The notes under the pieces are model-generated. The model saw only the letters and a list, made by a program, of their open reading frames with translations. It was not told the origin of the DNA and did not search any database. This document shows positions 7,554-37,325 of a stretch of 64,000 nucleotides of DNA, in pieces. Location of the stretch: contig JAFWPM010000115.1 of assembly GCA_017509565.1 (NCBI GenBank), forward strand, positions 8,401-72,400. Reading direction: 5' to 3'. Position 1 is the first letter of the stretch. Each line of letters starts with the position of its first letter. The position numbers were made by a program, and so were the translations under genes. This DNA is from Kiritimatiellia bacterium. GTDB taxonomy: Bacteria; Verrucomicrobiota; Kiritimatiellia; RFP12; JAAYLN01.

Positions 7554-7562
7554 GGGAGGGCG

Positions 7563-16264: not shown

Positions 16265-19200
16265 GGTGTTGCTCCTTGTGTTTGGATGGATTGCTGGTTT
16301 GGCGTTTGTCTCGCCGGTGTTTCTTCCCTGCCCAGATGGCCAAAGGGCGCGGCGGTCTTGGTGCCGCCGATGCCCTCCGTCCACTCCCGCCACTCGCGGG
16401 GGCCGCCATCCGAGTCGTTGACGAGGAAGTTGAAGCCGAAGGCGCGCGCGTCCGCCTTGAGCGGATAGAGCTCGCGAACCGGTATGGAAAGGTCGAAGGA
16501 GTAGCCAGACGGCGTGCGCCGGAACGCGATCTCCGCGTCCTGGACAACACCCCGGCGCGTGATGTCGTCGGGCAGTTCGGGGGTTGTGTAGTTGCGGTCC
16601 TTGTAGAGGATGTCGCGCCCGTCCGCCGTGCGCAGGAGGCGGAAGGAGGTGAAGTCCGCGCCGTCGTCGCGCGGGTCGATGGCGAACTGGATCGAATCGT
16701 TGAGCCAGCAGTTCTCCGGGCCATCTGGCGGGTCGAAGGCGTCGTCCTCGACCTCGAAGCGGAGGTGCAGGGAAGGCTGCGGACGCGCCGTGGGCGCGTC
16801 CCTACCACTTTGCGTGTGCTCTGGCAGGGACGTTTCCACGAAATGTCCGCCTAATGCCAATCTCGCCGTCGCGCCGGGAATGGCGATCGGCGGGCCGAAG
16901 GCGTCCGTTCCGAACGCGCCCCTGTGGAGCGCCTTGGATGCGGAATGGGTTTCCGAGATTTGCGCCACGGTGATGTCCCGGACTTCAATCGGCGCGCCGG
17001 CGGCCTGCTCCGAGAAGTCGGCGACGAGGACGAGGCGGAGCGTCGCGGCCTTTTCGTCCGCAATGGTGAAGGTGTCCGCGACGGTTTTCCACTCCGGCCC
17101 GGCGCGGCGGTCGCGGAGGCAGTTGAGTCCCTGCTTTCGCGGCCAGAGTTCTCCACCGTCTGCGTCATGGACGGTGACGATGCCGTCGAGGGTGCCGGCG
17201 CCTCGAATCGCGGCGGCGAAGAGATAGGTGTCGCCATAGCGGACGGGGACCGAATGGGCGACGGTCTCGAAGCGGCGTCCGCTCGCGGTGAAGGCGCGGC
17301 GTCCGGGCGGGACGAGGTTATCGCCGAGCGGATGCGTCGTGGCGGCCTCCGCCCGTGCGGCGGCGCTTTGCGCAAGGGCGGCGCGGATGGCGTCCCAGTC
17401 GCCGCCCTCGACATAGCGCGGGCGCGGCGTGGCGGGGAGGGCGAGAAGACCGTCCGCGCCGGGGGCGGCGGGCGACTCGTTGTCCATGAAGTCAACGGCC
17501 GTGAAGGACCCGCCGCCGAGCGTCGCGCGGAATGCGGCCGGGACGGAAAGCGCGTTCCAGAAGACCGTGACGGGCGTCCCGGCGCGGTCGAAGACGTATG
17601 CCTCGCATTCGCGGGTCGAGAGGTCGCCGACGTAGGCGGCGCCTTCGAGGCGGTGCGTCATGGCGCGGTAGGCGGCGAAGGCCGGGAGCGGCGCGCCGCG
17701 CACGTCGTGGAAGGAGTAGGGGCTGCCCTGGATGAAGGGCTGGAAGGCGAAGGTGCGGGAGACGCCGGCCGCCGCGTCGCGGACATGGAGCTTCACCATT
17801 GCGGAAGCGACGGCAAGCGGGCCGCTCCCGCGCTCCGAATGCCAGTCCATGTCCTCGGAATTCACGATGGCGAGGCCGGGGGCGATGGCGTCGCGCAGGG
17901 CGCGCCAGCCCGCCGCCTTGGAGGAGAAGCGCTTCGCGTTGCCGAGGTAGTGGACGCTCAGCGTGTCGAAGTCGGCGACGCCCCCGGCCGCCGCGACGGT
18001 TTCTTCTAGGAAATGCGCGTCAAGCGGGGCGCCGGGATAGACGCGGCACGCGGGGTCGGCGGCGTGGGCGGCGATGTAGGCGGTCTTGAGGTAGGCGGCG
18101 AAATCCTCCGGGCTTCCCGTGGTCCAGAATGCGCTTGTGTAGCCGGGTTCGTTTCCGATTTCCCAGTCGGAGACCCGCCCCCTGTAGCGGGAGACGAGGC
18201 GGCTCACGAAGTTCGACCAGGCGGCGAGGTCCGACGGGGCGGCCATTTTCCAGCGCGGCTCCCCGGTGACGGTGAGTTTTCCGTCCGCCGAAGGCGAGGT
18301 CCAGCGCGGGACGCCGACGACGTTCACGAGGACGCGGAGGCCGTTTTGGGCGGCCAGGTCGAGCCGTTCGTCGAGTCCGTCCCAGACGTCTCGGCCGCGC
18401 TCCGGTTCGCGGAGCGCCCAGCTCAGGTAGTGCAGGCGCGCCCATTTCGCGCCGGCGAGGCGGGCGCGGCGCAGGGCGCGCTCCGTCCTTTCGCGGCGGA
18501 GCGCGGTGTCGCGCAGGAAATAGCCGTCGCCGCCCACGGCGTGGCAGCCGAAGCGCGACGAGTCGATGAAGCCCTCCTCCGGCGGCTCCAGAACGCAGTA
18601 GGAGGTTGCGGCGGCGGCGCACTGGCGTGGCGACGACGCCTCGTCGTCGCGAAAGGCGGCGGAGACGCCGAACCAGCCGAGACGATCCGCGGGGAGCGCG
18701 GCTTCGCCATGCCCGCCCGCGATTTCCGCCTCGCCCCGGAAGACGACATTCGACGCGATGTCGCGCACCTCGTAGCGGACGAACCCCGCATCTGCGTTGG
18801 AGAGGTGCAGCGCAAGGCGGGCGTCGCCGCCGGGACGGAAAACGCCGTCGGGATCGGAGGACGCGATTTCCAGAAGCGGCTGGAACTCCGGCACGACATC
18901 GGATTCGACAAGCGCGATCGAGTCAAAGGTCACGGACTCGTGCTTGCCCGGGGAGACGACGCGGATCGTCGCGGCGTTGCGTCCGGGGGCGACGGGCATC
19001 GCGAAGTCGTAGGAAAAGCGCGGCGGCGAGCCGTCCGCGCCACGCGCGGGGATGTCGTAGAGGCGGCGGCGGCCGTCGGGGAGGGAGATTTCGACCCCGC
19101 CGGGGCCGTTTTCCGGCATGTGGCCGGCGTTGCAGCATTCGACGCGGAGGATGCGGAAACCGGGCGCGGATTCGTCCCAGAAAAGTTCGAGACCCGTCAC

Positions 19201-19807: not shown

Positions 19808-21016
19808 CTAGAGCGTGTCGCGGTTTTCGCGGCGCCATTCGGTCATGGTGACGCCCGTCACCTGCTTGAAGAGCTTGGCCAGATGGCTTTCGCGCACGAA
19901 GTTCGTCCGCTCCGTGATTTCGCCGATCGAGAGGCTGCCCGCCGCAAGCAGCGCCTTGACGCGCTCGATGCGTTCGCGGACGATCGCGTCTCGGACCGAA
20001 AAGCCCAGCTTGGCGCGGAACCGTCCTTCCAGCGTCCGCCGGGAACATCCGCTCGCGCGCACGACGGCGGCGACGTCGAGGTTCCCGTCCCCGGCGTTGC
20101 GCCGGACGAAGGCGACTGCCCGCGAAATGGCGGCATCGCTCGTGGCGGCGTAGCCTGTGCTGTCGCGCGTGACGATGCCGATGGGTGGCTGGGAAATGGC
20201 ACACTCGCGGGGCTGGCGACCGGACATGAGGTCGTCAAGCATCGCCGCAGCAATCTGGCCGCGGCGAAAGCCGCCGGTATGGATGCTTGAAAGGGACGGC
20301 ACGGTGGAGTCGCAAATCAGAGGGTCGTCGTCGACGCCCAGAACGGCGATTTCGTCCGGAACCCGAAGACCGGCGAAAAGACACGCCTCCAGCACGTTGC
20401 GGGCCCGATGGTCCGCCGGGGCGAAAACCGCCGTTTCCCGTGGAAGTTCCCTGAGGAAGCGGACCATGCGCTCCCGTTCCGTCGGCCAGTCTCGCTTTTC
20501 TCCGGCGGTGGAGGAATCGAACACCGCGAAGTCGAACCCCCGCTCCGCGAGCGCGTCGCCGAAACCGAGGCGCCGCTCGCGACTCCAGCATTCGACGCTG
20601 GGCAGATCGACGAACGCGAACGAACGGTATCCCCGCGAAACGAAATAGCGCGCCGCCATCGTGCCGATCGCGCGTCCGTCTCGCCGCACATAGGGAATGC
20701 CCCGGAGCGGATAGTCGGGATCCTCCAGTTCCGGCCCCGGTTCCACGAAAACCACCGGGACGCCCAGCGCCGCGATTTCGCGCGCGTCATCGAAGCCGGT
20801 CCTGGAGACGATGATGCCGTCGACCCCCGTTTTGGGAAAATCGGCCATCCTCTCGCCGCTCCAGCGCTCGTCAAAAAGGCAGAACCACTGACCGCTTTTC
20901 CCCACGTGGTCGAGAATGCCGAGAAACGTCGAGCGCTCCGCCTTCCTTTCCAGCGAAAACAGGATTGCGACCTTTTTCGTGCGGTTGTCTGCCATTGTCA
21001 TTGCCCTTTCAAGCAT
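19808..21016 (-). CDS. XylR-type transcriptional regulator (periplasmic-binding-protein-like sugar domain plus C-terminal AraC HTH)
   Basis: N-terminal KKVAILFS ... IIVSRTG ... AVLGVDDD (LacI/PBP-I-like). C-terminal RRTLEGRFRAKLGFSV...HLAKLFKQVTGVTMTEWRR (AraC HTH). The start is chosen at MLERAMTMADN. Confidence 0.75.
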   Translation of the reverse strand: MLERAMTMADNRTKKVAILFSLERKAERSTFLGILDHVGKSGQWFCLFDERWSGERMADFPKTGVDGIIVSRTGFDDAREIAALGVPVVFVEPGPELEDPDYPLRGIPYVRRDGRAIGTMAARYFVSRGYRSFAFVDLPSVECWSRERRLGFGDALAERGFDFAVFDSSTAGEKRDWPTERERMVRFLRELPRETAVFAPADHRARNVLEACLFAGLRVPDEIAVLGVDDDPLICDSTVPSLSSIHTGGFRRGQIAAAMLDDLMSGRQPRECAISQPPIGIVTRDSTGYAATSDAAISRAVAFVRRNAGDGNLDVAAVVRASGCSRRTLEGRFRAKLGFSVRDAIVRERIERVKALLAAGSLSIGEITERTNFVRESHLAKLFKQVTGVTMTEWRRENRDTL

Positions 21017-21047
21017 GGCTGGCCCTCCCTGGACCCGCGAACTGCAC

Positions 21048-22676
21048 CTATGCCTTCTCAATGATCGGGATGTCGATGTTGCGCTTCTTGGAGGAGAAGT
21101 TGATGCCAATCAGCGTCACGGGACGCTTGCCGCCCTTCCACTTGTCGGCGTAGCCGCGCTCGCGGATCTGCCGCATCGCGGCCTCCGGCGATTCGTCGTA
21201 TTTGAACTCGAAGACGTAAACGGCATCCGGACGCTGGACAATGGCGTCGGCGTAGCCGCGCGCAGAGGGGAACTCCGGCGCGGGGTCGGCCCCGAGCATG
21301 GCGAAGAAGAGCTGGAAGTAGCGCTTCGCCTCGGATTCGTTCGCAATCCGCCAGTCCGGAGGAATCTGCGCGTAAAGCGAGAAGAGCATCGTCTCCACCA
21401 CTTCGCGGATGTCGCCGGCGGCGATGAGGCGTCTGGCCCGGTCGATGAGAGTTTCCCAAGAATCGTCCGGGAATCCGAGAATCCGGGAAACGTAGCCATC
21501 GCGCAGCGAATGGCGGATTTCCTCGTTCGGCGGCGCGAGACGGTAGGTGTCGGTGGCGGCGACGCCCTTGTCCTCTGGCTTGTCGGAGTGGAAAACCTCC
21601 TTAATCGTCAAGTAGCCGCTCTGGTAAAGTAGCGCTTCAATGGGTAGCGTCTCGGCGTCGCACACATCGAGTTGAATCGGGCGGACACGGACATTCTCCA
21701 GATCGTCCGGCATCTTGCCGACGGCCTTGATGCGGTTGAAGATGAGGGTCGAGCCGCCGGTAGCCTCCCAGTAACTCTTGAACACACCACCGCCGGGTGA
21801 GAAGAGTTTGCCGAGCGAGACTGGATTCACGACACGCGCTTCTGTTTGCGGTGAAAAGCGATAGCCGTCGAACCATTTGAGAATCTTGTCTCTGGTTGAC
21901 TCAAAGTCCTGACCTAGTTTTTTCGCAAGAGCCTCGACATTCTCGCGAAGCGCACCGTCAATTTCGGAATGCGTGTAGCCAAGGAGTGTTGCGAAGCGAG
22001 CATCGTCCGACAAGTCCGTGAGGTGCGTAAGACCCGAGAAGACCGAGAGTTTCGTGAGCTTTGTCACGCCCGTCATCATCAAAAAGCGGATGACGTCGGA
22101 ATTGATCTTCAGTTTCTCGTAGAAGTCGTGTAGAAGTTTACGAACGCGCTTCAATTCCCCGATGTCATCCAGAAACCCTGCCACCGGCTCGTCATACTCA
22201 TCGACAAGAACAACGATTTTCTTCGTCGGCGAGAGTTCTGCGGCAGCCTTCAGGAATTTGGAGAACTTGCCGGGAATCGTGCCCTTGGAGGGAATGGCGA
22301 GTCCCGCCTGTTCATAAAGTCCATCGACGATTTCCCCAAGCTGCTCCTTGACCTCGGCGTAGGAGTCGCCGTTGGCGTTGGACATCGTGAAGGAATAAAC
22401 GGGTGTCGGCGCAGTCCATCCCTCCCAATCTTCCTTGTCGATCGCCAGCCCCTTGAAAAGGTCCCTCCGCCCCTCGAACATCGCCTGAATCGTGGAGAGC
22501 ATGAGCGACTTGCCGAAGCGGCGCGGGCGAGAGATGAAATACTGGGCATCCTCTTCCTTCCGGGCGAGTTCGTAAAGAATGCCGGTCTTGTCCACATACT
22601 TCGTTTCCTTGCCATTGATCAGGGTCGGGAAGTCGTGGACTCCGGTGGTCAGTTCCTGGATTCTGCGTTTCGCCAT
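21048..22676 (-). CDS. AAA-ATPase_like (PF09820-type) protein with C-terminal PD-(D/E)xK nuclease-like domain
   Basis: KYVDKTGILYEL...YFISRPRRFGKSLMLSTIQAMFEGRRDLFKGLAI is the family N-terminal signature. C-terminal DAVYVFEFKYDESPEAAMRQIRERGYADKW. GC is lower than the neighbours. Start at MAKRRIQELTTG. Confidence 0.8.
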   Translation of the reverse strand: MAKRRIQELTTGVHDFPTLINGKETKYVDKTGILYELARKEEDAQYFISRPRRFGKSLMLSTIQAMFEGRRDLFKGLAIDKEDWEGWTAPTPVYSFTMSNANGDSYAEVKEQLGEIVDGLYEQAGLAIPSKGTIPGKFSKFLKAAAELSPTKKIVVLVDEYDEPVAGFLDDIGELKRVRKLLHDFYEKLKINSDVIRFLMMTGVTKLTKLSVFSGLTHLTDLSDDARFATLLGYTHSEIDGALRENVEALAKKLGQDFESTRDKILKWFDGYRFSPQTEARVVNPVSLGKLFSPGGGVFKSYWEATGGSTLIFNRIKAVGKMPDDLENVRVRPIQLDVCDAETLPIEALLYQSGYLTIKEVFHSDKPEDKGVAATDTYRLAPPNEEIRHSLRDGYVSRILGFPDDSWETLIDRARRLIAAGDIREVVETMLFSLYAQIPPDWRIANESEAKRYFQLFFAMLGADPAPEFPSARGYADAIVQRPDAVYVFEFKYDESPEAAMRQIRERGYADKWKGGKRPVTLIGINFSSKKRNIDIPIIEKA

Positions 22677-22751
22677 ATTGCGCTCCTTGCCGTTTACGCC
22701 TTCAATTCTAGCAAAACGCGGGGCGAAATCCAAGTTGAAACTGTTGAAAAA

Positions 22752-22801
22752 TGTTGCCAATGTGAAAATGTTGCCAATTGCCAATGCCAGCTGCCAATTG
22801 C
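22752..22801. repeat. tandem TTGCCAAT-type repeats (about 5) in the upstream region of the ATPase gene
   Basis: ATGTTGCCAATGTGAAAATGTTGCCAATTGCCAATGCCAGCTGCCAATTGC. Confidence 0.4.
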
Positions 22802-22806
22802 TTTTA

Positions 22807-22859
22807 GCCACAAAGGACACAGAGTTCCCAAAGTCTGTGTGTTCCTTTGTGTTCTCTGG
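22807..22859. repeat. palindromic RPE-like element, intergenic copy E1
   Basis: GCCACAAAGGACACAGAGTTCCCAAAGTCTGTGTGTTCCTTTGTGTTCTCTGG. Its arms are imperfectly complementary (G:T wobble-compatible) and homologous to the in-ORF copies at 35246, 57470 and 59090. Confidence 0.6.
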
Positions 22860-22916: not shown

Positions 22917-25339
22917 TCATCGTGTTCCGTCCACAAGGACGGAAAGGTTCTGCCCGCGCAGGTAGCGGATGGAGATGTCGTGGCCACGCCAACGGAGATT
23001 GTCAAGGACGAACCAGTCCCACGCCGGATCGGCGAGCGGATCGACGCGGTAGCCGCCCTCGCCGTCTGGGACGAAGCCGCAGAGGCCCGTGACAACGAGG
23101 TCGCAGAAGGAGGAGTGGTTGTAGTCCTTGCCGCGTTCGCGCGGGAAGCGCGCCCGCATCTCCGGGTCGGAACGCATGATGGTCCGCGAAATCCAGTCGG
23201 GCTTGTCGGGGTTGAGGTTTTCGTCGATCCACGGCACGACGGTCCAGCCGTCGTCGCGGTCGCGCGTCCGCTTCTGCTGCGCGGCATACTGCCACATCAG
23301 GAAATCGAAGGCCCGCCGCCCCTCTTCGGACGGATGCGCGTGGAGGTCGTTGGCAAAGGCCGTCAGGGCGATGGAGGTCGCAAAGGGCCAGCTGGGGCCG
23401 TTCCACTGGCATTCGTGCCCCTCGTATGCGATTTTGAAGCCGGGGGCGCGGCGCTCCGGGAAGGTGAGACCGTATTTCGCGGCGAAGCCCTGCGGGTCGG
23501 AGAGCTGCGACCAGTCCGGTGCCACACCGACGGGAACGCCGAAATACCACGGCGCGTAGCCGTGCAGTTCGCGAACGGGATTCAGCGTCCCGTCGCAGCC
23601 TCGCGTCGAGAAAAAGCTCGTTCCAGTGTTCCAGCACTTCTCCATCAGCGCCTTGCGGACGCCCTCCGCCTTGGCCTCGAACTCGTCGGCGAGCGCGTCG
23701 CGGCCCGCTCGGCGCGCGACGGCGGCGATGCACCGAGACTCGCTCCACATGGCGCTGTTCATGAGCGGCTTCCACCCGTTTCCGCCAAGGGAGTATTCGG
23801 TGCCTTCGCGGGAATCGACGGAAAGGAAGCCGCCCGCGCCGTCGCCACCCATGCGGCCGGTGTCTTGCGCAGGCCAAAGCGAAATGCCGTCAAAGCCCTC
23901 CTCCCAGCGGCGGTAGTAGCGGACGGCGTCGTCGAGAAGCCGGACGGGAAGCTCGTCGAGGCCATGCGCTTCGGCGAACTGGCAGCAACCCGTGAAGAGC
24001 CAGCTCGAATATCGCCAGCGATGCTCCGACTGGGGGCCGGCGAGCCAGAAGCGGGCATGGTCCGCAAGATATCTCGGGTCGCGCAGCCAGCGTCCTTCGC
24101 GGAAGTGGTGGCCCGCCGGGCAGACGATTGTGTTGTCCGCACCGCTCCACGAGACCTTGGGCAGGAACTCCGTGACGCGCCACCCGCCGTCCGCGCCCCG
24201 GCGCAGATGCTTGCGGTAGGTCCACCAGCGGAAATAATACGTCCGCTCGATGTCCTTGTCGGGGCAGGCGAAGCGCGGGACGTTCTCCAGCATCCACGCC
24301 TCCGCATCGGCGTTCGGGATCGCGTTCGCGTAGAGTTCCTCGTCCATCGCGTTGAAGCGCCGGACGTAGTCGCGCAGAATCTTTTCCGTGTCGGGCAGGC
24401 GCGCGGGCGACGCTTCTAGGTCGAGTCCGCCGTGGACGGCGCAGCCGACGTATTCGGGGAAGCCGCTGCGGCCGTTGTAGTAGAGGAGCCAGCGGTCGTT
24501 CGCCTCGTCGCGCACGGCGGAGGGCTTGTAGGTCGCGCTGCCGTCCCACGTGCCGAGGTCCGGGGCCACGATGGGGTTCTGGTGAATGCGCCGCCAGCCC
24601 GTCACGCCGTCCTCCGACACGGCCGCGCCGATGCGCGCCGTGTCGATGTCCGAGTAGCCGATGTAGAACATCGCGAAGCGCCCGTCGGGAAGGGGATGCA
24701 CCTCGCAGCCGCCCACGCGGTCGCGGTCCCACGAGTCGCGCGGGCCGTGCGCGAAGACGGGGTTGCCCTCGAACTTGCGCCATTCGAGGCCGTCGGCCGA
24801 CTCCGCGTAGCAGATGACGTTCGGCTCGTAGGTCTCGCCGGCGGCGTACCACATCCGCCAGACATTACGCTCCGCGTCCCAGCGGACGTAGGGATTCATC
24901 ACGGAGAGCTTTTCGCAGTCGGACTCTGGCACCAGAACGGGTTCGCGCCGGACGCGCGCGAAGCGTACGCCGTCTTGGCTTGTCGCGTAGCCGATGCTCG
25001 ACATGCCGCCCGCCTGGCCGGTGTACCACAGGTGCCACACGCCGTCGCGGAAGACGGTGCAGCTGCGGTTGATGTTGTCCTCCCAGCCGCTCGCGGGATC
25101 GGCCTCCAGGCAGACTTCGGGCTCCTGCGACCAGTGGAGGCCGTCGCCGCTGCGGACGAGGGCGATTGCCTTGCGCGGCCGCCAGGAGAAATACATCGTC
25201 CAAGGCGCAGGGCCGTCGCGCACCACGTTTACGTCGAAGCACGTGCCGAGGCGCTCGCCGCCCAAAATCGGGTTTCCTTCGAACTTCGTCCAGAGGCCGG
25301 CGATCGGGCCGGTCCCCTTTTCCATTTCATTGTTCATTC
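22917..25339 (-). CDS. two-domain glycoside hydrolase: N-terminal GH130/GH43-like five-bladed beta-propeller plus C-terminal (alpha/alpha)6 barrel (GH63/MGH1-like)
   Basis: N-terminal FEGNPILGG...WTMYF...WHLWY...FEGNPVF...FAMFYIGYS blades. C-terminal RWWTYRKH...GHECQWNGPSWPFATS six-hairpin-like. Start at MNNEMEKG (about 25339). Confidence 0.6.
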
Positions 25340-26100
25340 TTTGCTTGCCACTCTTGGAGGATGGTCCGCCAGCGGGCCTTGTCAGCGTCGCTTGCGAAGG
25401 GGGCGTGGAACCAGTCCGTTCGGCCAAGCCGGCGGTTCTTGTCCTCGCCCATCGGATGGTAGGGCTCGATGTCAATGCGGACGATGCCGGGCGTCGTCTC
25501 GGACAGACGCCGGATATGGCGTAGCGCCTCGTTCGAGTCGTTCACGCCCGGAACGAGCGGGCACCGCAGGACGACCGATGCTCCGCGCGAGGAGAGAAAG
25601 GCGAGATTGTCGAGGATCGGTTCGGCGGGACACCCCACGAGCTTTTCATGGAGGGATGGCGGCGCCTTGACGTCCCAGAGCCACAAGTTGACGAGAGGCA
25701 GCAGCGCCTCGATGCGTTCGCGCGGCGCATAACCCGATGTCTCGACCGCCGTATGGATGCTCTCCGTCTTCGCGGCGGCGAGAAGCGCGCGTGTGAACTC
25801 GAAGTGCGCCAGCGGTTCGCCGCCGCTGATGGTGAGCCCGCCGCCTGAATTGTCGTAGAAGGCCTTGTCCTTGCGGACGCTTGCCATGACCTCCTCGACG
25901 GTCATGGCTTTGCCGACGATTTCCGGTGGCCCTCCGTTCTCGCCTGCCATCGTCTCCTGCTCGAAGGACTGCGATTCCGGGTTGTGGCACCAGAGGCAAC
26001 GCAACGGGCAGCCTTTCAGAAAAACGACCGTCCGGATTCCCGGCCCGTCGTGGACCGCGAACTTCTCGATGTCGAAGACGATGGCAATTTCGTCGCTCAC
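25327..26100 (-). CDS. glycyl-radical enzyme activating protein (radical SAM, PflA-type)
   Basis: VFLKGCPLRCLWCHNPES (CxxxCxxC), a glycine-rich SAM motif, and a second Cys-rich stretch. GTG start 26098-26100 overlaps the glycyl-radical enzyme stop (GTGA). Confidence 0.85.
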   Translation of the reverse strand: MSDEIAIVFDIEKFAVHDGPGIRTVVFLKGCPLRCLWCHNPESQSFEQETMAGENGGPPEIVGKAMTVEEVMASVRKDKAFYDNSGGGLTISGGEPLAHFEFTRALLAAAKTESIHTAVETSGYAPRERIEALLPLVNLWLWDVKAPPSLHEKLVGCPAEPILDNLAFLSSRGASVVLRCPLVPGVNDSNEALRHIRRLSETTPGIVRIDIEPYHPMGEDKNRRLGRTDWFHAPFASDADKARWRTILQEWQAKNEQ

Positions 26101-28226
26101 GCCTTATGCTCCGTTCGGGCGATGACGTCGTCCCGGATTGATTCCGCAAGCCCGACGAAGTAGGCGGAGAAGCCGGAGACGCGGACGCGGAGGCTCTTGT
26201 AGGCGTCGGGGTTAGCCTTCGCGGCGCGGAGCTCCTCGGCGGAGACGTGGTTGAGCTGGATGTGCAGCCCGCCTTCCCGGAAGTAGGTCTCGACAAGGGC
26301 TACGAGCTTCTCGAAGCTTTCGTCGTCCGTGACGATGCGCTCGTCCACGGAGAGGTTGAGAATGGAGTCGCCGGTCATGATTCCGGTGGGGTCCATGTGG
26401 GCGACAGAGCGCATGAGCGATGTCGGCCCGTCGCGGTCCTTGCCATTCGACTGTCCGCCGCCAAAGAGGAGGGCGCTTCCGAAAACGCGCCCGTCGGGCG
26501 TGGCCTTCGTTTGCGCCCCGAACCAGGCGAAGTGCGCATTGTAGCCGGTAAGGTTGCCGAAGGTGAGCGGATGGCCGAAGAAGTCGGTGCGTCCCTCGGC
26601 AAAAGCCGCGACCGAGCGGTAGAAGCGGTGCGCGACAGAGTCCGCGAGGTCGTCGCCGTTGCCGTAGAAGCGCCCGTCCCGGAGAATCTCCTCGCGCAGC
26701 GCCTCATGGCCCTTCCAGTCCGCATCGAGCGCCGCAAGGAGCGCCTCCATCGTGCAGCGCTTTTCCTCGAAGACGAACTGGCGGATCACGCAGAGCGAGT
26801 CGATGAGGTTGGTGGAGCCCATGAAATGCGCGCACCAAAGGGCGCGGGTGGCGCCGCCCTGCGTCACGCTCGCCGCGCGTTCGATGCAGCCTGACATGAG
26901 GAGGGAGGTCAGCACGTTGCAGTCGCGCGAGCGGAGCATGTTGAAGCGGTTGGAGTAGTCGAGGATCGTCTCCAGGTCGTGGCGCAGCTCCTGCTCGTAG
27001 AGAGAGTAGAAGGAATCGAAGTCGCGGCAGGCGAGGGCTTCTGCGCGGCGTCCGTCGAGGGTACGCACGAGGGAGCGGACGATGTTCACCGTGTTGCCAC
27101 CGAGCGAGATGCCGCCCTGGAAGGCAGGCTCGTTGCAGCCGACCATGATGTAGTCGAAGGCCTCCTTCCATGGCATGCCGCGGCGGCCAGTCATGTCGGC
27201 GATGCGCGGCTCGTCGTTCACGAAGGCGATGCGCTTGTTCCTGTCCTTGCGTTCGGCGTCGAGCATCCGGCGCAGCACGGAGCGCGGCGTGAGTTGGTTC
27301 CAGCGCAGCGAAATCTGCGGGCGGACGAGGTCGGTCTCCATCAGGGATTCGACAATCAGCTCCGAGAGGTCGTTCCAGGCGCATCGGTGGTCGATCGTGT
27401 AGCCGCCGACGACGAAGTGCGACTCCGCGCCCTTGTCGGCGTTTCCCGAACTCGGCGGCGTGTAGCCGTGGATCATTACGAAGAGTTCCTGGAGCAGCTC
27501 CTTTGCGTGGTCGCGGGTGAGTGTGCCGTCCGCCAGTCCGCGCTCGTAGAGCGGCAGCAGATACTGGTCTGGGCGGCCGATGCTGTCTGGCTGGAACTGG
27601 AAGCAGAAGTAGAGGCACTGGACCGCCTCCTCGAAGGTCTGCGCCGGATGCTCGGGGACGCGCTCGCAGTTCGCGGCCATGCGTAGGAGCGCAGCGCGGC
27701 GTTTGGGCGGCGTCGCAGGATCGACGGCGCGGCGGCGGCACTCGGCGGCGTATTGGTGCGAGCGGTTGACGATGCCGCGGATCATCGACTCCAGTCCCGC
27801 GAGAAACTCCAGGCGCTTCATGTCGGACTCGTACTGGCGGCGCGCCCCGACAATCTCCGCGCGAAGTCCGACAAGGCCGATGCGGATCACCTTGCCGAAG
27901 TCGGCGTTGGAGTGCTGCCACTCGAATGTGCAGAGGTTCTCCTGCGGATGCCGATAGTATTTGCCGGCGGCCTCGTAGAAGAAGCGGTGGCCGATGCGCG
28001 GAAAGAGAGGACCCTCGACCGAGCCGTCGAAACGGATCATGCCGACGAGCTCGTTGTCGTCGGAGAAGGCGCATGGCTGTGCCGACATGTACTCAGTCAG
28101 TCTCTTGGCGATGCGCTGAGGATCGGAAAGCTTCTCGTCGAAGGCGTCATAGTCGACCTTGACTTGCTTGGGATAGATGTCGCCCGCGTGTGCGGCGACG
28201 ATGAGGCGTTGGATGCGGTCGTTCAT
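26097..28226 (-). CDS. glycyl radical enzyme, eliminase/dehydratase-type (compact, 709 aa)
   Basis: Cys loop IMVGCNEPAFQGG (GCxEP as in GDH/CutC/HypD-type enzymes). C-terminal glycyl motif LRVRVSGFSAYFVGL. Substrate unknown. Confidence 0.8.
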   Translation of the reverse strand: MNDRIQRLIVAAHAGDIYPKQVKVDYDAFDEKLSDPQRIAKRLTEYMSAQPCAFSDDNELVGMIRFDGSVEGPLFPRIGHRFFYEAAGKYYRHPQENLCTFEWQHSNADFGKVIRIGLVGLRAEIVGARRQYESDMKRLEFLAGLESMIRGIVNRSHQYAAECRRRAVDPATPPKRRAALLRMAANCERVPEHPAQTFEEAVQCLYFCFQFQPDSIGRPDQYLLPLYERGLADGTLTRDHAKELLQELFVMIHGYTPPSSGNADKGAESHFVVGGYTIDHRCAWNDLSELIVESLMETDLVRPQISLRWNQLTPRSVLRRMLDAERKDRNKRIAFVNDEPRIADMTGRRGMPWKEAFDYIMVGCNEPAFQGGISLGGNTVNIVRSLVRTLDGRRAEALACRDFDSFYSLYEQELRHDLETILDYSNRFNMLRSRDCNVLTSLLMSGCIERAASVTQGGATRALWCAHFMGSTNLIDSLCVIRQFVFEEKRCTMEALLAALDADWKGHEALREEILRDGRFYGNGDDLADSVAHRFYRSVAAFAEGRTDFFGHPLTFGNLTGYNAHFAWFGAQTKATPDGRVFGSALLFGGGQSNGKDRDGPTSLMRSVAHMDPTGIMTGDSILNLSVDERIVTDDESFEKLVALVETYFREGGLHIQLNHVSAEELRAAKANPDAYKSLRVRVSGFSAYFVGLAESIRDDVIARTEHKA

Positions 28227-28293
28227 GGTTCGTTGGCTGGTTGGGCAGTTGGTTGGCTGACTAGTGGTTGGTCGTCATCCGCCCTACGTCACC

Positions 28294-29124
28294 TTAGCAC
28301 GGCGAAAGCTGTTCGCCGCCATCGACGCGGAAGACCTGGCCGGAGATGTAGGCGCCGCCAGGGCCACAGAGGAAGACGGCGAGGCGCGCGATGTCGTCGG
28401 GCGTCCCGACATGTTCGAGGCGGCTCAGCCCTGGCGTCGGCTCGACGCGGTCGCCCCCGAAGCGGATGCGCGTCGAGGGCGTGTTGATGTTGCCGGGAAC
28501 GATGCAGTTCACCGGGATGCCGTCGTGGCGGAGGTTCGCCGCAAGGAGCCGCGTGTATTGGTGGACGGCCGACTTGGCGACGGAGTAGGCGGCGAAATCG
28601 CCGCCGCCGGTTTTGTTGCCACCACATCCCGCGATGGAGCCGATGGTGACGATGCGTCCGTCGCCGCGCCCGCGCATGTCCGGGACGACGGCGCGGCAGC
28701 AGAGCATGGTCGTTAGAAGGTTGTGGTCGATGACGGCGTGGACAAAGCTGGTGTCGAATGTGGCAGCGTTGCCTTTCGGCGATTCGGTCCGCAGTGCTAC
28801 ACCGACATTGCCGCCGCCTGCCGCGCAGACGAGGATGTCGATCTTGCCGAGGCTTGCGCGGATTTTCTCCGCGCAGCGCGACACTTCCTCCTCGCGCGAA
28901 AGCTCGCCACAGACGGCGATGCAGCGGACACCGTATTCGCGGGCAATCTCGGTCGCTACATCGTCAACCGAAGTCCCCTCGCCAGAAGAGCGCAGGTTCG
29001 TCTGGTTGCGGCCGGAGATGGCCATGTCGCAGCCAGCTTCGGCTAGCCGTTCGGCAATGCGCCTCCCTATGCCGCGTGACGACCCTGTGACCCACGCGAT
29101 TCTTCCTTGAAGCTCCTTGTCCAT
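28294..29124 (-). CDS. short-chain dehydrogenase/reductase (SDR)
   Basis: TGSSRGIGRRIAERL (TGxxxGxG), NAG-like CAAGGG, and a Y-x3-K region (YSVAKSAVHQYTR). Start at MDKELQGR. Confidence 0.8.
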   Translation of the reverse strand: MDKELQGRIAWVTGSSRGIGRRIAERLAEAGCDMAISGRNQTNLRSSGEGTSVDDVATEIAREYGVRCIAVCGELSREEEVSRCAEKIRASLGKIDILVCAAGGGNVGVALRTESPKGNAATFDTSFVHAVIDHNLLTTMLCCRAVVPDMRGRGDGRIVTIGSIAGCGGNKTGGGDFAAYSVAKSAVHQYTRLLAANLRHDGIPVNCIVPGNINTPSTRIRFGGDRVEPTPGLSRLEHVGTPDDIARLAVFLCGPGGAYISGQVFRVDGGEQLSPC

Positions 29125-29172
29125 GTCACGTTCTTGCTCGTTCTTGTTCGGCTCTTCCGGCGTTTGCACTCG

Positions 29173-31335
29173 CTAGTGCTTTTCAAGTTCATAAAACAGC
29201 GTCGCCGCATCCGGGTCGTAGTCCGTGCGGGCCGTGAAGACGAGCCGCCCGGTCGCAGGATCGCGTTCGACCGGAATTTCGCCAAGGCGGAGTCCGGCGG
29301 TGTTGAGGCGCCACGCCCTCCAGTCGCCGTCCGCAGTAGCAAGAGCGATTTCCGCCGCGCCGTTGCGTGCGAGGTGGGGAAGTCCGCCCCAGTCTTCGAG
29401 AATCGTCAGTTCCGGGTCGCGGTAGCGGACGCCGCTGTTCTGCACGTCGGTAAGGTGCGTGACAAGGATGCGCGAAGATTCGGGAAGGGGCTGGCCGTCG
29501 AGCGACGAGGCCCAGACCGTGGCGGGGGTGGCGGCGAGCGCGAACCGCAGCGCCCCGGCGTCATGCGCGCCGGATTCCGCAAAGCCGCCCGCCGTGCGGG
29601 GGGTGTCGATGAGGAAGGTGCCCGCGTTCTGGTCGATGCGGATCGCGCCGTGGGCTTTCTCCTTGGCGCCAAGCGCGGCCAGGTCGGCCCCGGCCTGCCT
29701 TGAAGTGGTGGAGAGCGTGGCGTGGGGAACACGGACGACGGGGGACGCCCACGAACCCCCGGCGGACACCACCGTCCCCACCTTCGCGTGCCAGCCCGTC
29801 CACAAGAGGGCGGGAAGTTCGCACTTGGGCGCGCCCGTGCGCGGGTCGCGCAGCGCAGACACGTCGAGGACAAGCGGATATTCGGCATCAAGCTCTGGAA
29901 GGTCGCGACGGAGGAAGAGGCAGAGGGCGGCGCGTTCGGAGGCGAGGCCGAGCGGGTCGGCGTTCAGGTTGAAGTAGTCCATCCGCCCGCCTGGCTCCTC
30001 CACGCCTTGGCGGTCGTGGCTCCATGCGAAGCGCCACATGCCGTCCCAGCCCTGAAGCGCGCCGAGCGCGCCCGTCACGATCCCCCCGCAGCCCCGGAAG
30101 CGACCGGGGCCGCTGAAGTTCCACTCCGTAAGGCAGAAGGGCTTGTCCATGAGCCGCCGCCACTCGACATCCCGGCCTCCGGCGCCATAGCCCGCGATCG
30201 GGTTCCTGTTCGGGCAGCTGCTCGGAAGCGACCACTGTTTTTCCAGAAACATAGGGTGATCGACGTAGAAATGGTCGTCCACGAAGTCGAAGTGCGTCCG
30301 CGACAGCTGATACTGCACCGGGTTGTACCACGACGAGAGGTTCGACACCGGGGCGCGGCAGCCGCACTTCTCGCGAACGAACGCCTTGAGGCGCTCGAAA
30401 AGCATCGTCTCGCGCTCGGCGAGGAACATCGCCACCGCACCCGCGCGCCGCCCCTCCGGTGTGTCTCCGGTCGCCTTGAGATCGTCGGGAATTTCGTGGG
30501 GGATTTCGGCGAAGGCGGCATTGCCCGCCTTCGCCGAAATCCACTCTTCCCACGCCTCCCGCACGCATGGGTGGGCGCGAAGCGCGGCGCCGCCCCAGTT
30601 GCCGAGGTTGCCCTCGTTGACGAACGAGAGCGTCGCGAGGGCCGGTTCCCCGGCGAGGCTGCGCCCCGTGCGCGGGTTCACGTGGCACAGGAAATTCTCC
30701 GTCCAGGCGCAGAGGTTCGAGAAGGCCGGTTCCCAGAACGCGCAGAGGATCTTGTAGGTGGCCGCGTTCCCGACGACGCCGTCGCGGTCGATGCCGATGG
30801 CGCGCCACGGCGTGGAATACGAGCGCGAGACGAAGAGATCGGTCGTGAGATAGACGCCCCGCTCGACGCACGCGGCGACGAGGTTGTCTAACTTCTCCCA
30901 CTGCTCCGGCGTCGGCGTGACGTCGTCCTGCCCCGGATAATGCCAGCCGTTGTCCACGATGAGGAAACGCTCGTGGTGGTGGATGCGGAGCGCGTTGTAG
31001 CCCATGCGGACGAGGTTGGCGACGAAGCGGTCAGCCGCCTCGCGCGACGAGGGGAGGTTCGCCTCGTTGCAGAGGTTGACGCCGTAGAAGCGTTGCGGGA
31101 CGCCCGGAATCCCCTCGAACTCAAAGTGGTCGCCGACGGCGATGACCCGTCCGAACTTGCCTGCCGGAGCATGGCGAGGCAGTGCCTCCGTGAAGTCAAG
31201 CGCCGAACCCGGCTCGATCCACGGGTCGAAACGGAGCGGAATCCAGTCCGCCCCGGCCTCGATGGTTATGGGTTCGGCAACGACATTGACGCAAAGGCCG
31301 CAGAGAACAGCGCAAAGGGATGCGGCAAGTTTCAT
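29173..31335 (-). CDS. secreted glycoside hydrolase, TIM-barrel (GH5/GH-A-like), family uncertain
   Basis: Signal peptide MKLAASLCAVLCGLCVNVVA. RFYGVNLCNEANLP and CLTEWNFSGP fit the GH-A-type NEx/TE pattern. Confidence 0.55.
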   Translation of the reverse strand: MKLAASLCAVLCGLCVNVVAEPITIEAGADWIPLRFDPWIEPGSALDFTEALPRHAPAGKFGRVIAVGDHFEFEGIPGVPQRFYGVNLCNEANLPSSREAADRFVANLVRMGYNALRIHHHERFLIVDNGWHYPGQDDVTPTPEQWEKLDNLVAACVERGVYLTTDLFVSRSYSTPWRAIGIDRDGVVGNAATYKILCAFWEPAFSNLCAWTENFLCHVNPRTGRSLAGEPALATLSFVNEGNLGNWGGAALRAHPCVREAWEEWISAKAGNAAFAEIPHEIPDDLKATGDTPEGRRAGAVAMFLAERETMLFERLKAFVREKCGCRAPVSNLSSWYNPVQYQLSRTHFDFVDDHFYVDHPMFLEKQWSLPSSCPNRNPIAGYGAGGRDVEWRRLMDKPFCLTEWNFSGPGRFRGCGGIVTGALGALQGWDGMWRFAWSHDRQGVEEPGGRMDYFNLNADPLGLASERAALCLFLRRDLPELDAEYPLVLDVSALRDPRTGAPKCELPALLWTGWHAKVGTVVSAGGSWASPVVRVPHATLSTTSRQAGADLAALGAKEKAHGAIRIDQNAGTFLIDTPRTAGGFAESGAHDAGALRFALAATPATVWASSLDGQPLPESSRILVTHLTDVQNSGVRYRDPELTILEDWGGLPHLARNGAAEIALATADGDWRAWRLNTAGLRLGEIPVERDPATGRLVFTARTDYDPDAATLFYELEKH

Positions 31336-32948
31336 CGCATGATGACGGTTGTCGCCTTGGGCTTCGTCAGCACTGTCGCGCCGGGTTGCTTCACGAGGCT
31401 GGCGCACGCGAACTCGACCGCGCTGGCGTCAAGCGTCGCGCCAGATGCCACCGTCACGATGCCGTAGGTCGCCGTGTCGCCGGCCAACGTGACCGTGCCC
31501 CCGGCGACCATGAGGTCGCAGGCGTTGGACAGCGCGGCCCCGGACACCGTAAGCGTGCCCGTTCCGGTCTTGACGATATTGACGTGCTCGCCGATCGCGA
31601 CGGTAAACGCAGCGTCGGCGTCGCCATAGCCGAGCGTCAGCGTCGAAACGGTGGCCGCGCTGTTCGAGACAATGCCTGCGCCGGTTGCGCCGGAGAACTC
31701 GGCATCGAATCCGTTCAGATCGAGAAAAGCCCCCTCCGCCACCGTCAGGAGTCCGCGTCCCGGCTTGAACTCGGAATCTGTCACGAGTACGTCTCCGCCG
31801 AGGATGGCGGTCGGCCCCGTGTAGTCGCAGGCGGAGTGTTGCGTAAGTCGATTGAAACGAAGGGTTCCGGCGCCACGCTTCGTAAAGCCGCCGTCGCCGG
31901 TGATGTTGATCTCGCGGTTGCCGGTGCTGCCGCCGCAGAGGGCGCGGTCGACGGCGTTCGACACGTCGATGGGATTTCCGTTGATTCCGACGACCGTCAT
32001 CTTCGGTTCAAAGATGGCGTTGCTCGTACGGCCTCGTCCGCGGACGTAGAAAAGCGGCAGCGACGCGGATTCGCCCGAAGTGTAGGGAACATACGAGCCG
32101 CCATCGAAGCAGATCCGGGAAGAGCCGGCTCCGAAATGCTGGATGCAGTTTGCGCGTAGCCATCCGTTCGACCCCAGGACAACTTCGGCAGTGTCGCTGG
32201 CATTCTCGGCTTGGAAAAGCATCGTGAACGCCCTGCCGTTGTCGAGGTTTGTCCCGCCCGCCGACACGGTGGCGTTCGTGACGCCCAGAAACATCGAAAG
32301 AGGAAAATCGAGCTGCTCGGACTGATAACCAAGGCGCAGCCCCTGAACGCCTGTCAACGAAGCTCTGTCGATCACGGAACCCGAAAACGGCGACACATTC
32401 GCGCCTAGGGCCATGTACACGCTGTCCTCCGTTGTCAACTGCCCGCCGTCATGGAGAGACAGCGTTTTGATTGCCGTGGCACCGTTGCCTACTCCCCAAC
32501 CGGCATTGTAGGCGATTCGGATTGCCGCGCCCCTGCCGATGTCCAAGCTGTCGCAGGAGATGGCTCCTCTGTTTGCGTACAGCCAGCTTGTCGCATTGAC
32601 GCCTTCGGCATTGAAGAACTTCAGCGGAACTCGCATGAAAGATGCCGGATTGGCATTGTTCTTGGCTTCAGACGGGAGATTGTTGATTGAGATGGAATAG
32701 CCGCGTCCAATCAGTTGGAATGGGTTGCTGACCGAAACGGAAGAATCGTATTTGAACATTCCCCCGAAGGTGATGCCGGCGCTGGAGGGGCCATACATCC
32801 TGTCGGCGTAGTAGCCATTCATGGACGTGAGGTCGATCGTGGTTGAATTGCCGACACTCGAGTTGAGTTCGTAGACGGACTGCGCCGATGCGGATATTGC
32901 CAGGGAGAGCGCCGCAAGCGGAGCGGCGACGAGTTTTATCGTCTTCAT
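31332..32948 (-). CDS. secreted PATR beta-helix protein with C-terminal ...KPKATTVIMR tail
   Basis: Signal peptide MKTIKLVAAPLAALSLAISASAQ. GTGTLTVSGAALSN...GGTVTLAG repeats. It ends KPKATTVIMR. Confidence 0.7.
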   Translation of the reverse strand: MKTIKLVAAPLAALSLAISASAQSVYELNSSVGNSTTIDLTSMNGYYADRMYGPSSAGITFGGMFKYDSSVSVSNPFQLIGRGYSISINNLPSEAKNNANPASFMRVPLKFFNAEGVNATSWLYANRGAISCDSLDIGRGAAIRIAYNAGWGVGNGATAIKTLSLHDGGQLTTEDSVYMALGANVSPFSGSVIDRASLTGVQGLRLGYQSEQLDFPLSMFLGVTNATVSAGGTNLDNGRAFTMLFQAENASDTAEVVLGSNGWLRANCIQHFGAGSSRICFDGGSYVPYTSGESASLPLFYVRGRGRTSNAIFEPKMTVVGINGNPIDVSNAVDRALCGGSTGNREINITGDGGFTKRGAGTLRFNRLTQHSACDYTGPTAILGGDVLVTDSEFKPGRGLLTVAEGAFLDLNGFDAEFSGATGAGIVSNSAATVSTLTLGYGDADAAFTVAIGEHVNIVKTGTGTLTVSGAALSNACDLMVAGGTVTLAGDTATYGIVTVASGATLDASAVEFACASLVKQPGATVLTKPKATTVIMR

Positions 32949-36057: not shown

Positions 36058-36150
36058 TTCAAATCGGGTTCTAGTCCAAGTTGTGTGATTCCGTTTTCAT
36101 GGCGCGAAGGATAACTCGCCATGGTGATGGACAAATGCTACCATTGCGCA
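36058..36150 (-). promoter_or_regulatory. partial copy of the conserved leader/promoter element upstream of the regulator
   Basis: Minus-strand ...GCCATGCGCAATGGTAGCATTTGTCC... It shares the TTTGCGCA / GGTAGNAT / GCTAC pieces with the copies at 12018 and 19552. Confidence 0.3.
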
Positions 36151-36183
36151 TGGCAAAAGTCAAGCGATTCCCTTCAATGGCAG

Positions 36184-36213
36184 TGTCAATAGATTGTGTG
36201 TCCCTTTATGCAC
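36184..36213. repeat. 30-bp dispersed repeat, copy R2 (TGTCAATAGATTGTGTGTCCCTTTATGCAC)
   Basis: Identical to R3, in direct orientation 200 bp away. Confidence 0.7.
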
Positions 36214-36269
36214 TGCCTGACTTATTTCTCATTTGGAATCTCTGGGCGCAGGAGTTTTGGACAGGATTT

Positions 36270-36330
36270 TGACAGAATTGGCAGGATTTTTTGGAACAGC
36301 AATCCTGTGAATCCTGTCAAACCCCCACAC
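36270..36330. repeat. array of GACAGGATT / TGACAGAATT / AATCCTGTC motifs (left flank of the AT-rich island)
   Basis: GGACAGGATTTTGACAGAATTGGCAGGATTTTTTGGAACAGCAATCCTGTGAATCCTGTCAAAC, with nested inverted symmetry. It is related to 38826-38895 and to the left part of E2. Confidence 0.55.
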
Positions 36331-36383
36331 GTCTCGATAGAATGCCTGTGCCCCAACTCTCTATGCCACACGGAAGTTCTCGT

Positions 36384-36413
36384 TGTCAATAGATTGTGTG
36401 TCCCTTTATGCAC
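36384..36413. repeat. 30-bp dispersed repeat, copy R3
   Basis: TGTCAATAGATTGTGTGTCCCTTTATGCAC. Its reverse complement supplies the codons ..KGHTIY-stop of the truncated transposase ORF. Confidence 0.7.
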
Positions 36414-36562
36414 ACTTCACAGCACTCAGGGCATACCGCCGCCTTCTTCGCGTATTCGACGAAGATGTCAACACGCCTCCCCTCCACGTCGAGTTCAACT
36501 TTTGAAACCTCACATTCCTCGCCAACACCAAGCAGAACCGAATAATGCTCGTTCACATCCAT
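36386..36562 (-). mobile_element. ISL3-family transposase, N-terminal zinc-finger fragment (58 aa, truncated at repeat R3)
   Basis: MDVNEHYSVLLGVGEECEVSKVELDVEGRRVDIFVEYAKKAAVCPECCEVCIKGHTIY matches the ISL3 zf N-terminus pattern (LLGL..V..VE......I.V......CP.CG......G). The remaining ~350 aa are absent. Confidence 0.5.
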
Positions 36563-36867: not shown

Positions 36868-37002
36868 AAGGCAGAAATCCCCTATTCCAACGTATGCCTT
36901 ATATAATGGATAGCAGAGCGTCTATTGGCGCTGAACACATTACTAAATCTTTCAGTAGAGCATATCTTGCTTTTTCCGCATCTTTTGCGAATAAGATGCT
37001 AA

Positions 37003-37308: not shown

Positions 37309-37325
37309 GGATCGCTCCTCCAAAA

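Follow-up and report, generated by a model that had tools for sequence, protein, structure and literature searches.

An uncharacterized compact branch of the glycyl-radical enzymes, probably of the 1,2-eliminase/isomerase class, in a Kiritimatiellia gene array

What reaction might a glycyl-radical enzyme (GRE) of only 709 amino acids (aa) catalyze when its gene lies among genes for glycosidases and secreted proteins? The question is raised by a 64-kb stretch of DNA from a Kiritimatiellia bacterium (contig JAFWPM010000115.1, positions 8,401 to 72,400 of the forward strand; hereafter the window). There, the GRE gene is part of an array, all of it on the minus strand, with genes for a radical-SAM activase, a short-chain dehydrogenase/reductase (SDR), and a two-domain glycosidase (Table 1). 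Judging by the genes and their conserved partners, and by the motifs, the fold, and the clade of the enzyme, all of which were observed directly, we think it rather probable that the array encodes a working GRE system from an uncharacterized compact branch of the 1,2-eliminase/isomerase class, which would cleave a C–O bond. How the enzyme reacts, what the SDR contributes, and which class of substrate is used are inferred below. Composed of a GRE and its activase, the cassette is no new kind of system. The compact GREs are a distinct, well-populated branch with reduced size, a rebuilt substrate pocket, and no characterized member.

A compact branch of the glycyl-radical enzymes

The protein matched the Pfam families PF02901 (3e-85, 287.6 bits) and PF01228 (3e-22, 79.6 bits). 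Its Cys loop, G363-C364-N365-E366-P367 (VGCNEP; read in DYIMVGCNEPAFQGG), holds a single Cys in a CXE arrangement, and its glycyl loop, R680-V-R-V-S-G685 (RVRVSGFSAYF), holds the radical-site glycine G685. The open reading frame (ORF), the Pfam matches, and the motif reading thus agree with an earlier sequence-only reading of this DNA, which had described a 709-aa GRE with a VGCNEP Cys loop and an RVSGFSAYF motif. A pyruvate formate-lyase (PFL)-like barrel domain, a C-terminal RVxG glycine-radical domain, and a cognate radical-SAM activase place the enzyme in the PFL-like division of the oxygen-sensitive GRE superfamily.

That reading had also called the enzyme compact, with an unusual N-terminus, and both features proved to be common to the family. 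A word-indexed search returned more than 1000 relatives; the best 120 were 50–97% identical, were mostly 707–713 aa long, and covered 99–100% of the query. When 1.84 billion representatives were searched exhaustively with HMMER, proteins of 702–713 aa aligned in full length from residue 1 down to 34–44% identity (P0122 to P0125, P0129, and P0134). Alignments to ordinary GREs of ~800 aa began only at about query residue 104 and scored ~250 bits, and all strongly matching GRE chains in the PDB were at least 759 aa long. Since the short N-terminus is kept down to 34–44% identity, the compactness is not a start-codon artifact. Compared with canonical GREs, the enzyme lacks ~60 aa of the N-terminal helical region and has several shortened internal loops; in GREs, the conserved dimer interface is built from N-terminal helices (PMC13450708). 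The motif set E/D-W-x-H, P-D-S, E-x-H-F/M, and G-C-N-E-P persists in P0122, P0123, and P0125, at 38–44% identity. Two variants of the gene were also seen: P0087 is a natural 1022-aa fusion of a family GRE (55% identical) with a ferredoxin-containing activase, and in locus L007 a second, degenerate GRE-like frame (4888–6068) comes after a full GRE.

The AlphaFold2 model of the enzyme, built from 32 family members, had a pLDDT of 91.8 and a pTM of 0.91. Compared by Foldseek, it gave TM scores of 0.76–0.85 to solved GREs, with 0.81–0.85 to propanediol dehydratase (PD), glycerol dehydratase (GDH), HplG, YbiW, and HypD at 21–26% identity. Because these scores are nearly equal, the fold alone singles out no closest relative. 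The enzyme was 20–26% identical to each solved GRE. When the PDB was searched by sequence, solved eliminase/isomerase GREs matched with E values of 1e-44 to 5e-71, Escherichia coli YbiW being nominally the best.

Every NCBIfam equivalog model scored far under its curated cut-off. The bit scores and cut-offs were 250 vs 1100 for HypD (NF043068), 204 vs 1050 for CutC, 274 vs 1000 for HpsG, 232 vs 1000 for HpfG, 208 vs 1100 for IAD, 170 vs 1150 for HPAD, 64.9 vs 994 for PFL (TIGR01255), and 220.4 vs 1109 for the PflD-type model PRK09983. The broad PFL2/glycerol-dehydratase subfamily model TIGR01774 gave 303.6 bits against a cut-off of 678.2. With this model, 10 other representatives of the compact clade scored 235–544 bits, and none of them reached any NCBIfam cut-off. 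A sulfonate lyase was considered, HpsG being the second-best model, and was rejected on that score and on the aligned region, which has a His and not the Arg/Gln clamp.

A neighbor-joining tree was calculated from 139 GREs, comprising the window protein, family members, library representatives, and YbiW, PflD, and PflB of E. coli K-12. The window enzyme fell into a clade consisting solely of proteins of 678–749 aa. In 100 bootstraps with 64 taxa, the core family was recovered in 100%, the wider compact clade in 95%, and this clade with three more members in 97%. All three E. coli enzymes stood outside the compact clade (YbiW and PflD in 95–100 of the 100 bootstraps). In the phylogenetic check proposed with the sequence-only reading, the enzyme thus clusters with no characterized family, by the NCBIfam scores and the bootstrapped tree alike. 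Among the characterized enzymes in a 2026 review of the superfamily, none is of such size or context (PMC13450708), and we found no description of the compact family in literature on GREs in these lineages or in glycan utilization. The nearest public locus, with a 99% identical GRE, is in a metagenome-assembled genome (MAG) labeled 'Verrucomicrobia bacterium UBA6982'. Other relatives, labeled Victivallales, Lentisphaeria, or Kiritimatiellae, were found in samples from rumen, gut, and digesters; cultured hosts were not seen among them. A 50% identical GRE is encoded in a Christensenellales MAG (L009), where the gene context was uninformative.

Active site and proposed reaction

The alignment to PD (5i2a) was used as a ruler for the active site because it reproduced the published numbering (C438, E440, H166, F344, and V696). 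Invariance was assessed over 32 family members. C364, N365, E366, H105, and Y562 are invariant in 32/32, and D214, E268, and H270 are also invariant. CXE is the signature kept by all GRE eliminases and isomerases, in which the Glu hydrogen-bonds the substrate hydroxyl; by this signature (PMC13450708), the invariant G363-C364-N365-E366 stretch assigns the family to the eliminase/isomerase class. Between Cys and Glu, the family invariably has Asn where the aligned solved enzymes have Val, Ile, or Thr. H105, the predicted general acid for the leaving group, aligned with PD H166 and YbiW H165; we take PD H166 and window H105 to be equivalent to GDH H164. In GDH, H164 serves as the acid from which the leaving hydroxyl receives its proton (PMC13450708).

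Other substrate-contacting positions have changed in a manner particular to the family. The invariant E268, at the position of PD F344, and H270 stand in place of the F/Y-Q-N motif, and a 6-aa deletion, which the invariant D214 adjoins, takes out the 'GHS' loop at PD 280–285. Y562 aligned with PD V696, a position that is presumably equivalent to GDH Y640; we assume that Y339, D447, and Y640 of GDH all have roles in its substrate pocket. Of the GDH/PD pocket set (Y339/F344, the H281/S282 loop, D447, and Y640), only Y562 is kept. With His, Glu, and Cys kept and the other positions changed, the alignment argues for C–O cleavage on a different substrate, one more polar than glycerol or propanediol.

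The steps proposed here follow from the established chemistry of the eliminase class (PMC13450708). The activase would place a radical on G685, which would pass to C364 as a thiyl radical, and this would take a hydrogen atom from a hydroxyl-bearing carbon of the substrate. E366 would deprotonate the hydroxyl of that carbon to yield a ketyl radical, while H105 would protonate the oxygen leaving group on the neighboring carbon. The C–O bond would then break, either in a dehydration or in an ether or ring opening as catalyzed by YbiW. The resulting alpha-keto radical would regain hydrogen from C364 to give a carbonyl product. Most simply, the SDR would reduce this product; alternatively, in the reverse order, it might prepare the substrate.

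Comparison with solved systems brings out what the compact enzymes share with them and what they do not. GDH (1R8W/1R9D) and PD (5I2A/5I2G) were top Foldseek matches (TM 0.82–0.84). They have the same fold, the single-Cys CXE loop, the leaving-group His, the Tyr at the GDH Y640 position, and a cognate radical-SAM activase gene next door. However, they are only 23–26% identical and 787–843 aa long, their loop reads G-C-V-E-P and not G-C-N-E-P, and their partners are microcompartment and iron-dependent alcohol dehydrogenase (Fe-ADH) genes, in place of which the window family has an SDR.

YbiW and PflD, termed 'GRE isomerases', are C–O lyases of 1,5-anhydroglucitol-6-phosphate and 1,5-anhydromannitol-6-phosphate and set a precedent for the opening of a carbohydrate C–O bond within the class (PMC13450708). 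YbiW (8id7, E 5.5e-71) is the best PDB sequence match and has the CXE loop and the aligned His. Unlike the window enzyme, from which they differ at all but ~26% of positions, both lie outside the compact clade, and their E. coli loci carry phosphotransferase system, sugar-phosphatase, and fructose-6-phosphate aldolase genes. None of these genes was found at any locus of the window family, and the loci examined gave no sign of a phosphorylated substrate. HypD, considered together with the dehydratases of hydroxyproline derivatives, gave the highest TM score (0.85; 6vxc) and has the eliminase loop; the carbonyl or imine product of its pathway goes to a separate reductase. In contrast, HypD is only 21% identical, and neither pyrroline-5-carboxylate reductase nor proline-pathway genes lie near the window GRE.

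Activase, partner genes, and the gene array

The stop codon (TGA) of the GRE gene and the start codon (GTG) of the activase gene overlap by 4 nucleotides (nt) through a common GTGA, as had been claimed and as the junction reads (...aaggcGTGAgcgac). The activase matched the Pfam families Radical_SAM and Fer4_12 and contains the motifs C31-x3-C35-x2-C38 and GGEP. It passed the cut-off of the eliminase-type model TIGR02494 (259.6 vs 174.35 bits), which matched in two stretches, and failed that of the PflA equivalog TIGR02493 (180.9 vs 231.75 bits). In alignments, a clean deletion of ~43 aa corresponds to the auxiliary 8-Cys 2x[4Fe-4S] ferredoxin insert of its relatives. One of these, the activase of locus L006, is 66% identical and keeps the insert. 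Since TIGR02494 also passes, the PflA-like architecture arose by deletion and not by descent from PflA. The earlier designation 'PflA-type' therefore fits the architecture of the activase and misses its ancestry. PflA (246 aa) and the window activase (257 aa) both have the radical-SAM domain and no other, and in both CX3CX2C lies close to the N-terminus, but by sequence the window protein belongs to the eliminase-type family (CutD, YbiY, and PflC type).

Most non-PFL activases carry a ferredoxin domain, the function of which is stated to be unknown, and the activases of PFL and ribonucleotide reductase (PFL-AE and RNR-AE) naturally function without it (PMC13450708). The short activase is kept at 78–95% identity across L001, L002, L008, and L012. 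Within the compact family, the full insert was seen in the activases of L006, L013, L031, L023, L016, L009, and L028, and a shortened one in those of L025 (276 aa) and L030 (266 aa). It is lacking in the window lineage (with L001, L002, L008, and L012) and, separately, in L032/L033 (251 aa).

Partner genes were surveyed at 16 dereplicated loci with usable flanks and on five short contigs; the survey drew on 11 genome loci and on 12 look-ups of exactly matching proteins. The activase gene was adjacent to the GRE gene or in the same gene string at 13 of the 16 loci. An SDR gene was present at seven (and on the short contig L004), an AraC-type regulator gene (~270 aa) directly upstream or divergent at six (and on three short contigs), and a gene for an esterase-type hydrolase at six. 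The SDR is thus the most conserved partner of the GRE besides the activase.

By its Pfam matches (adh_short, 133 bits, and adh_short_C2) and its TGSSRGIG and YSVAK motifs, the window SDR is a classical one. Its sequence gave no clue to its substrate: the generic FabG, glucose 1-dehydrogenase, and gluconate 5-dehydrogenase models of NCBIfam stayed below half their cut-offs, and the best PDB match, gluconate 5-dehydrogenase (1vl8), reached only E 4e-29. The SDRs of the window, L005, L013, L023, and L031 are mutual orthologues, 52–76% identical, next to GREs that are 61–73% identical, which indicates that SDR and GRE coevolve. The SDR link made in the sequence-only reading is thereby borne out. 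At L025 (GRE 44% identical), an unrelated SDR is part of an operon in the order GRE, PTE-family hydrolase, SDR, and activase. The association of SDR and GRE is strong, not obligatory.

Among the esterase-type hydrolases, a family of ~580-aa alpha/beta-hydrolases (EST580) occurs in L002, L005/L006, and L032/L033, with 50–73% mutual identity and a nucleophile motif of GCSGG or GTSGG. The best PDB match of EST580 is BT1017 (6GOC; E 5e-9), a pectin methylesterase acting on rhamnogalacturonan II (RG-II) (PMC7939467). The others are an AXE1 gene (L031), a small alpha/beta-hydrolase (L020), and the PTE-family hydrolase of L025; L005/L006 also carry a beta-lactamase-fold hydrolase. Overlaps of 4 nt link esterase and GRE genes in L032/L033 and GRE, esterase, and SDR genes in L005. 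The L032 copy of EST580 has a signal-peptide-like N-terminus, which weakens the idea that EST580 might be a cytoplasmic lactonase.

Table 1. Genes of the minus-strand array and other features of the window (positions within the 64-kb stretch)
Feature	Position	Strand	Description
GH42	9882-12017		CAZyme
BNR-repeat protein	12217-13386		
GH28	13402-14694		CAZyme
XylR-like regulator	19808-21109	-	Peripla_BP_3 (9e-31) and HTH_18 (Pfam); periplasmic-binding-protein fold with AraC helix-turn-helix
Two-domain glycosidase	22917-25337	-	806 aa from likely ATG; ORF to 25475 (852 aa)
GRE activase	25327-26100	-	257 aa, GTG start
GRE	26097-28226	-	709 aa, ATG start
SDR	28294-29124	-	276 aa from ATG; ORF extends to 29169
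Secreted protein, 744-aa ORF	29173-31407	-	likely ATG 31338 (721 aa); directly upstream of SDR
PATR protein	31332-32948	-	538 aa, secreted; first gene of the co-directional array
GH78 rhamnosidase	55462-58080		CAZyme

In the window array, the PATR stop (31332) overlaps the likely ATG (31338) of the 744-aa ORF gene, 67 nt separate the SDR stop from the GRE start, and the ATG of the glycosidase gene is overlapped by the activase stop (junction ATGAACAATGA). The likely SDR start was placed at ATG 29124, which is also the end coordinate given in the sequence-only reading, because the orthologues align from that Met. In a promoter and terminator scan, terminator-like sites were at chance level. The XylR-like protein is a candidate for the local regulator; another XylR-like copy lies at 34795–36057, and its homologue is kept upstream in L001.

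A signal peptide is evident in the 744-aa ORF protein, in a 1096-aa protein, and in the PATR protein; none is evident in the two-domain glycosidase. The 744-aa ORF protein (N-terminus MKLAASLCAVLCGLCVNVVAEP) matched no family in Pfam, NCBIfam, or PDB sequence searches. Its NEG and TEW motifs suggest that it is possibly a clan GH-A glycosidase, and its homologues lie next to the GRE only in L001 and L002. In L001, a GH26 gene (7402–9042 of that locus) stands between the 744-aa-type gene and the SDR gene, where the window has none (about 29124–29173), and this indicates a recent gene gain or loss inside the array.

The autotransporter-repeat (PATR) protein matched TIGR02601 (22.2 bits vs a cut-off of 19.85) and ends in ...TTVIMR. 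The C-terminal tails of the two secreted PATR proteins are nearly identical (...KATTVIMR in this protein, ...KTATVIMMR in that encoded at 14732–16393), and a third secreted protein (860 aa; 60674–63256) ends in ...AFVMVLR; this common tail may be a sorting or anchoring tag. The array is flanked by genes of lower GC content at third codon positions (GC3) for a predicted AAA-ATPase with a PD-(D/E)XK nuclease domain and a related ATPase (21048–22820 and 33135–34568). Similar AAA_14/DUF4143 ATPase genes flank the GRE gene in L012 (7767–9071 and 13059–14168) and L008, and such genes may be selfish or defense-type insertions. A patch at ~36000–38750 has a GC content of 0.445, compared with ~0.65 elsewhere in the window, and was probably acquired horizontally; it holds a 469-aa ORF (37326–38735; GC3 0.47) with no Pfam match.

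The substrate and competing explanations

Most likely, the substrate would be a neutral or acidic polyhydroxylated compound from glycan breakdown. What the neighboring genes say about it depends on the glycosidases. The gene downstream of the activase gene had been read as a GH130-like/(alpha/alpha)6 hydrolase. This description had to be replaced: an N-terminal beta-propeller, with a weak GH130 match, is followed by a C-terminal GH142-like (alpha/alpha)6 domain, which matched residues 613–1070 of BT_1020 (5mqr; E 1.5e-71); the protein also matched MGH1-like_GH in Pfam (8e-48). BT_1020 is a GH142 beta-L-arabinofuranosidase of the RG-II system of Bacteroides thetaiotaomicron (PMC7263609). The GH142-like gene follows the activase gene only in the window and in L001, the locus with the 99% identical GRE. 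In L004, the homologue is no more than partial and has the opposite orientation, and the 86–87% identical GREs of L008 and L012 have neither this gene nor an SDR gene nearby.

Across the 16 loci, the glycosidase families beside the GRE were GH36/Melibiase (L012, L020, and L032), GH42-like (L013 and L023), GH1 (L023 and L009), GH5 (L008/L012), GH26 (L001), and GH16 (L026), and no family recurred in more than three lineages. Therefore, the view of the array as a glycoside operon stands only in part: the SDR link is conserved, the hydrolase link is not. The window contains at least nine genes for carbohydrate-active enzymes (CAZymes) in its 64 kb. Because the host genomes are CAZyme-dense, adjacency to glycosidases is weak evidence alone. 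A deoxy-sugar, polyol, or sugar acid, as the sequence-only reading had proposed, is still a plausible class of substrate. Taken together, the GH142-like, GH28, GH78, BNR-repeat, and GH42 genes of the window and the BT1017-like EST580 genes of relatives form a pectin-type set, a hint at rhamnogalacturonan-type substrates.

Several points weigh against a C–O-cleaving system that acts on a glycan product with the help of the SDR. The active-site mapping is a HMMER pairwise sequence alignment, not a comparison of coordinates, combined with residue roles taken over from GDH and PD. N378, aligned with PD D452, is variable in the family. By numbering offset, PD D452 should be the GDH D447 position; as this residue is not conserved, the leaving group may be handled otherwise than in the dehydratases. 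No activase gene lies within 9–10 kb of the GRE gene in L020, L026, and L034 (GREs 53–66% identical), which must therefore depend on an activase encoded elsewhere. The SDR gene is missing in L008 and L012 and in about half of the loci, and the SDR may therefore be accessory. Finally, the CAZyme-dense context is the sole ground for a carbohydrate origin of the substrate.

In its boldest form, the proposal sees in the compact 'GCNE' GREs a new functional class, one that would perform radical C–O cleavage directly on a carbohydrate; this we put forward tentatively, as a possibility well short of even. Such an enzyme would, for example, dehydrate a free sugar or uronic acid from pectin-type glycans or remove an O-substituent (e.g., a methyl ether) from it. 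A deoxy-keto sugar or deoxy-lactone could result, to be handled by the SDR and the esterase- or lactonase-type hydrolases.

It is somewhat unlikely that the glycosidases are adjacent by chance and that the substrate is a small hydroxylated metabolite, sensed by the AraC-type regulator, for instance a cyclitol (quinate or inositol), a hydroxy-amino acid, or an osmolyte. The scatter of glycosidase families and the CAZyme density of the hosts would be expected if this were so, and the minimal conserved unit consists of the AraC-type regulator, the GRE, and the activase (L016, L028, and L030); moreover, L026 and L034 show no same-strand CAZyme linkage to the GRE gene. Yet carbohydrate-esterase-like genes are recurrent and translationally coupled (the BT1017-related EST580 and AXE1), the activase stop overlaps the start of the GH142-like gene in the window, and amino-acid or cyclitol pathway genes were seen at none of the loci.

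We regard as unlikely a divergent, shortened B12-independent diol dehydratase that acts on glycerol or on 1,2-propanediol derived from rhamnose or fucose, with the SDR reducing the aldehyde. PD (5i2g) and GDH (1r8w) were indeed the top structural matches, H105, E366, C364, and Y562 agree with the GDH catalytic set, and a GH78 rhamnosidase is encoded in the window. However, TM scores to PD and GDH were no better than those to HypD or YbiW, and TIGR01774 reached less than half its cut-off. In the pocket, E268 and H270 replace the hydrophobic/aromatic F/Y-Q-N motif, the GHS loop is gone, and the aligned counterpart of GDH D447 varies. Near the GRE gene, no microcompartment shell, aldehyde dehydrogenase, or Fe-ADH genes were found at any locus examined.

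Decay of the cassette, with a nonfunctional ferredoxin-less activase and a relic GRE, is very improbable. The activase has lost its auxiliary domain, sister lineages have lost the SDR, and some loci lack the activase, but the catalytic motifs are intact and invariant in at least 32 sequences, full-length ORFs extend from 99% to 38% identity, and the short activase keeps CX3CX2C and GGEP, is conserved between loci, and resembles PFL-AE and RNR-AE in doing without the ferredoxin domain. That the enzyme is an unusually sized pyruvate or 2-ketoacid formate-lyase, as annotations of some relatives suggest ('formate C-acetyltransferase' and 'pyruvate formate lyase family'), can practically be dismissed: TIGR01255 matched the C-terminal glycyl domain only, PFL (1h16) matched residues 525–705 only, the G-C-N-E loop lacks the adjacent Cys-Cys pair of the PFL active site, and E. 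coli PflB falls outside the compact clade.

The preferred reading, an eliminase/isomerase-class GRE system that would cleave a C–O bond, bears on a superfamily in which whole clades are still unannotated, as the current review stresses (PMC13450708). The compact clade is now delimited by its size range, by the motifs E-W-x-H, P-D-S, E-x-H-F, and G-C-N-E-P, and by its conserved partners (SDR, AraC regulator, and carbohydrate-esterase-like hydrolase), and is thus a defined target. Its activases, in which the ferredoxin domain is complete, reduced, or absent within one family, constitute a natural experiment on that domain. These variants also bear on a practical bottleneck, as activases are hard to produce. 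Among the characterized enzymes, the only sugar-acting GREs are YbiW and PflD, with anhydro-sugar phosphates as substrates (PMC13450708). If the substrate of the compact enzymes is carbohydrate-derived, a radical step would be added to glycan catabolism in gut and rumen anaerobes of the Lentisphaerota and Kiritimatiellota type. If C–O cleavage on a carbohydrate is true, it would represent a previously unknown anaerobic route for sugars without a conventional fermentative pathway.

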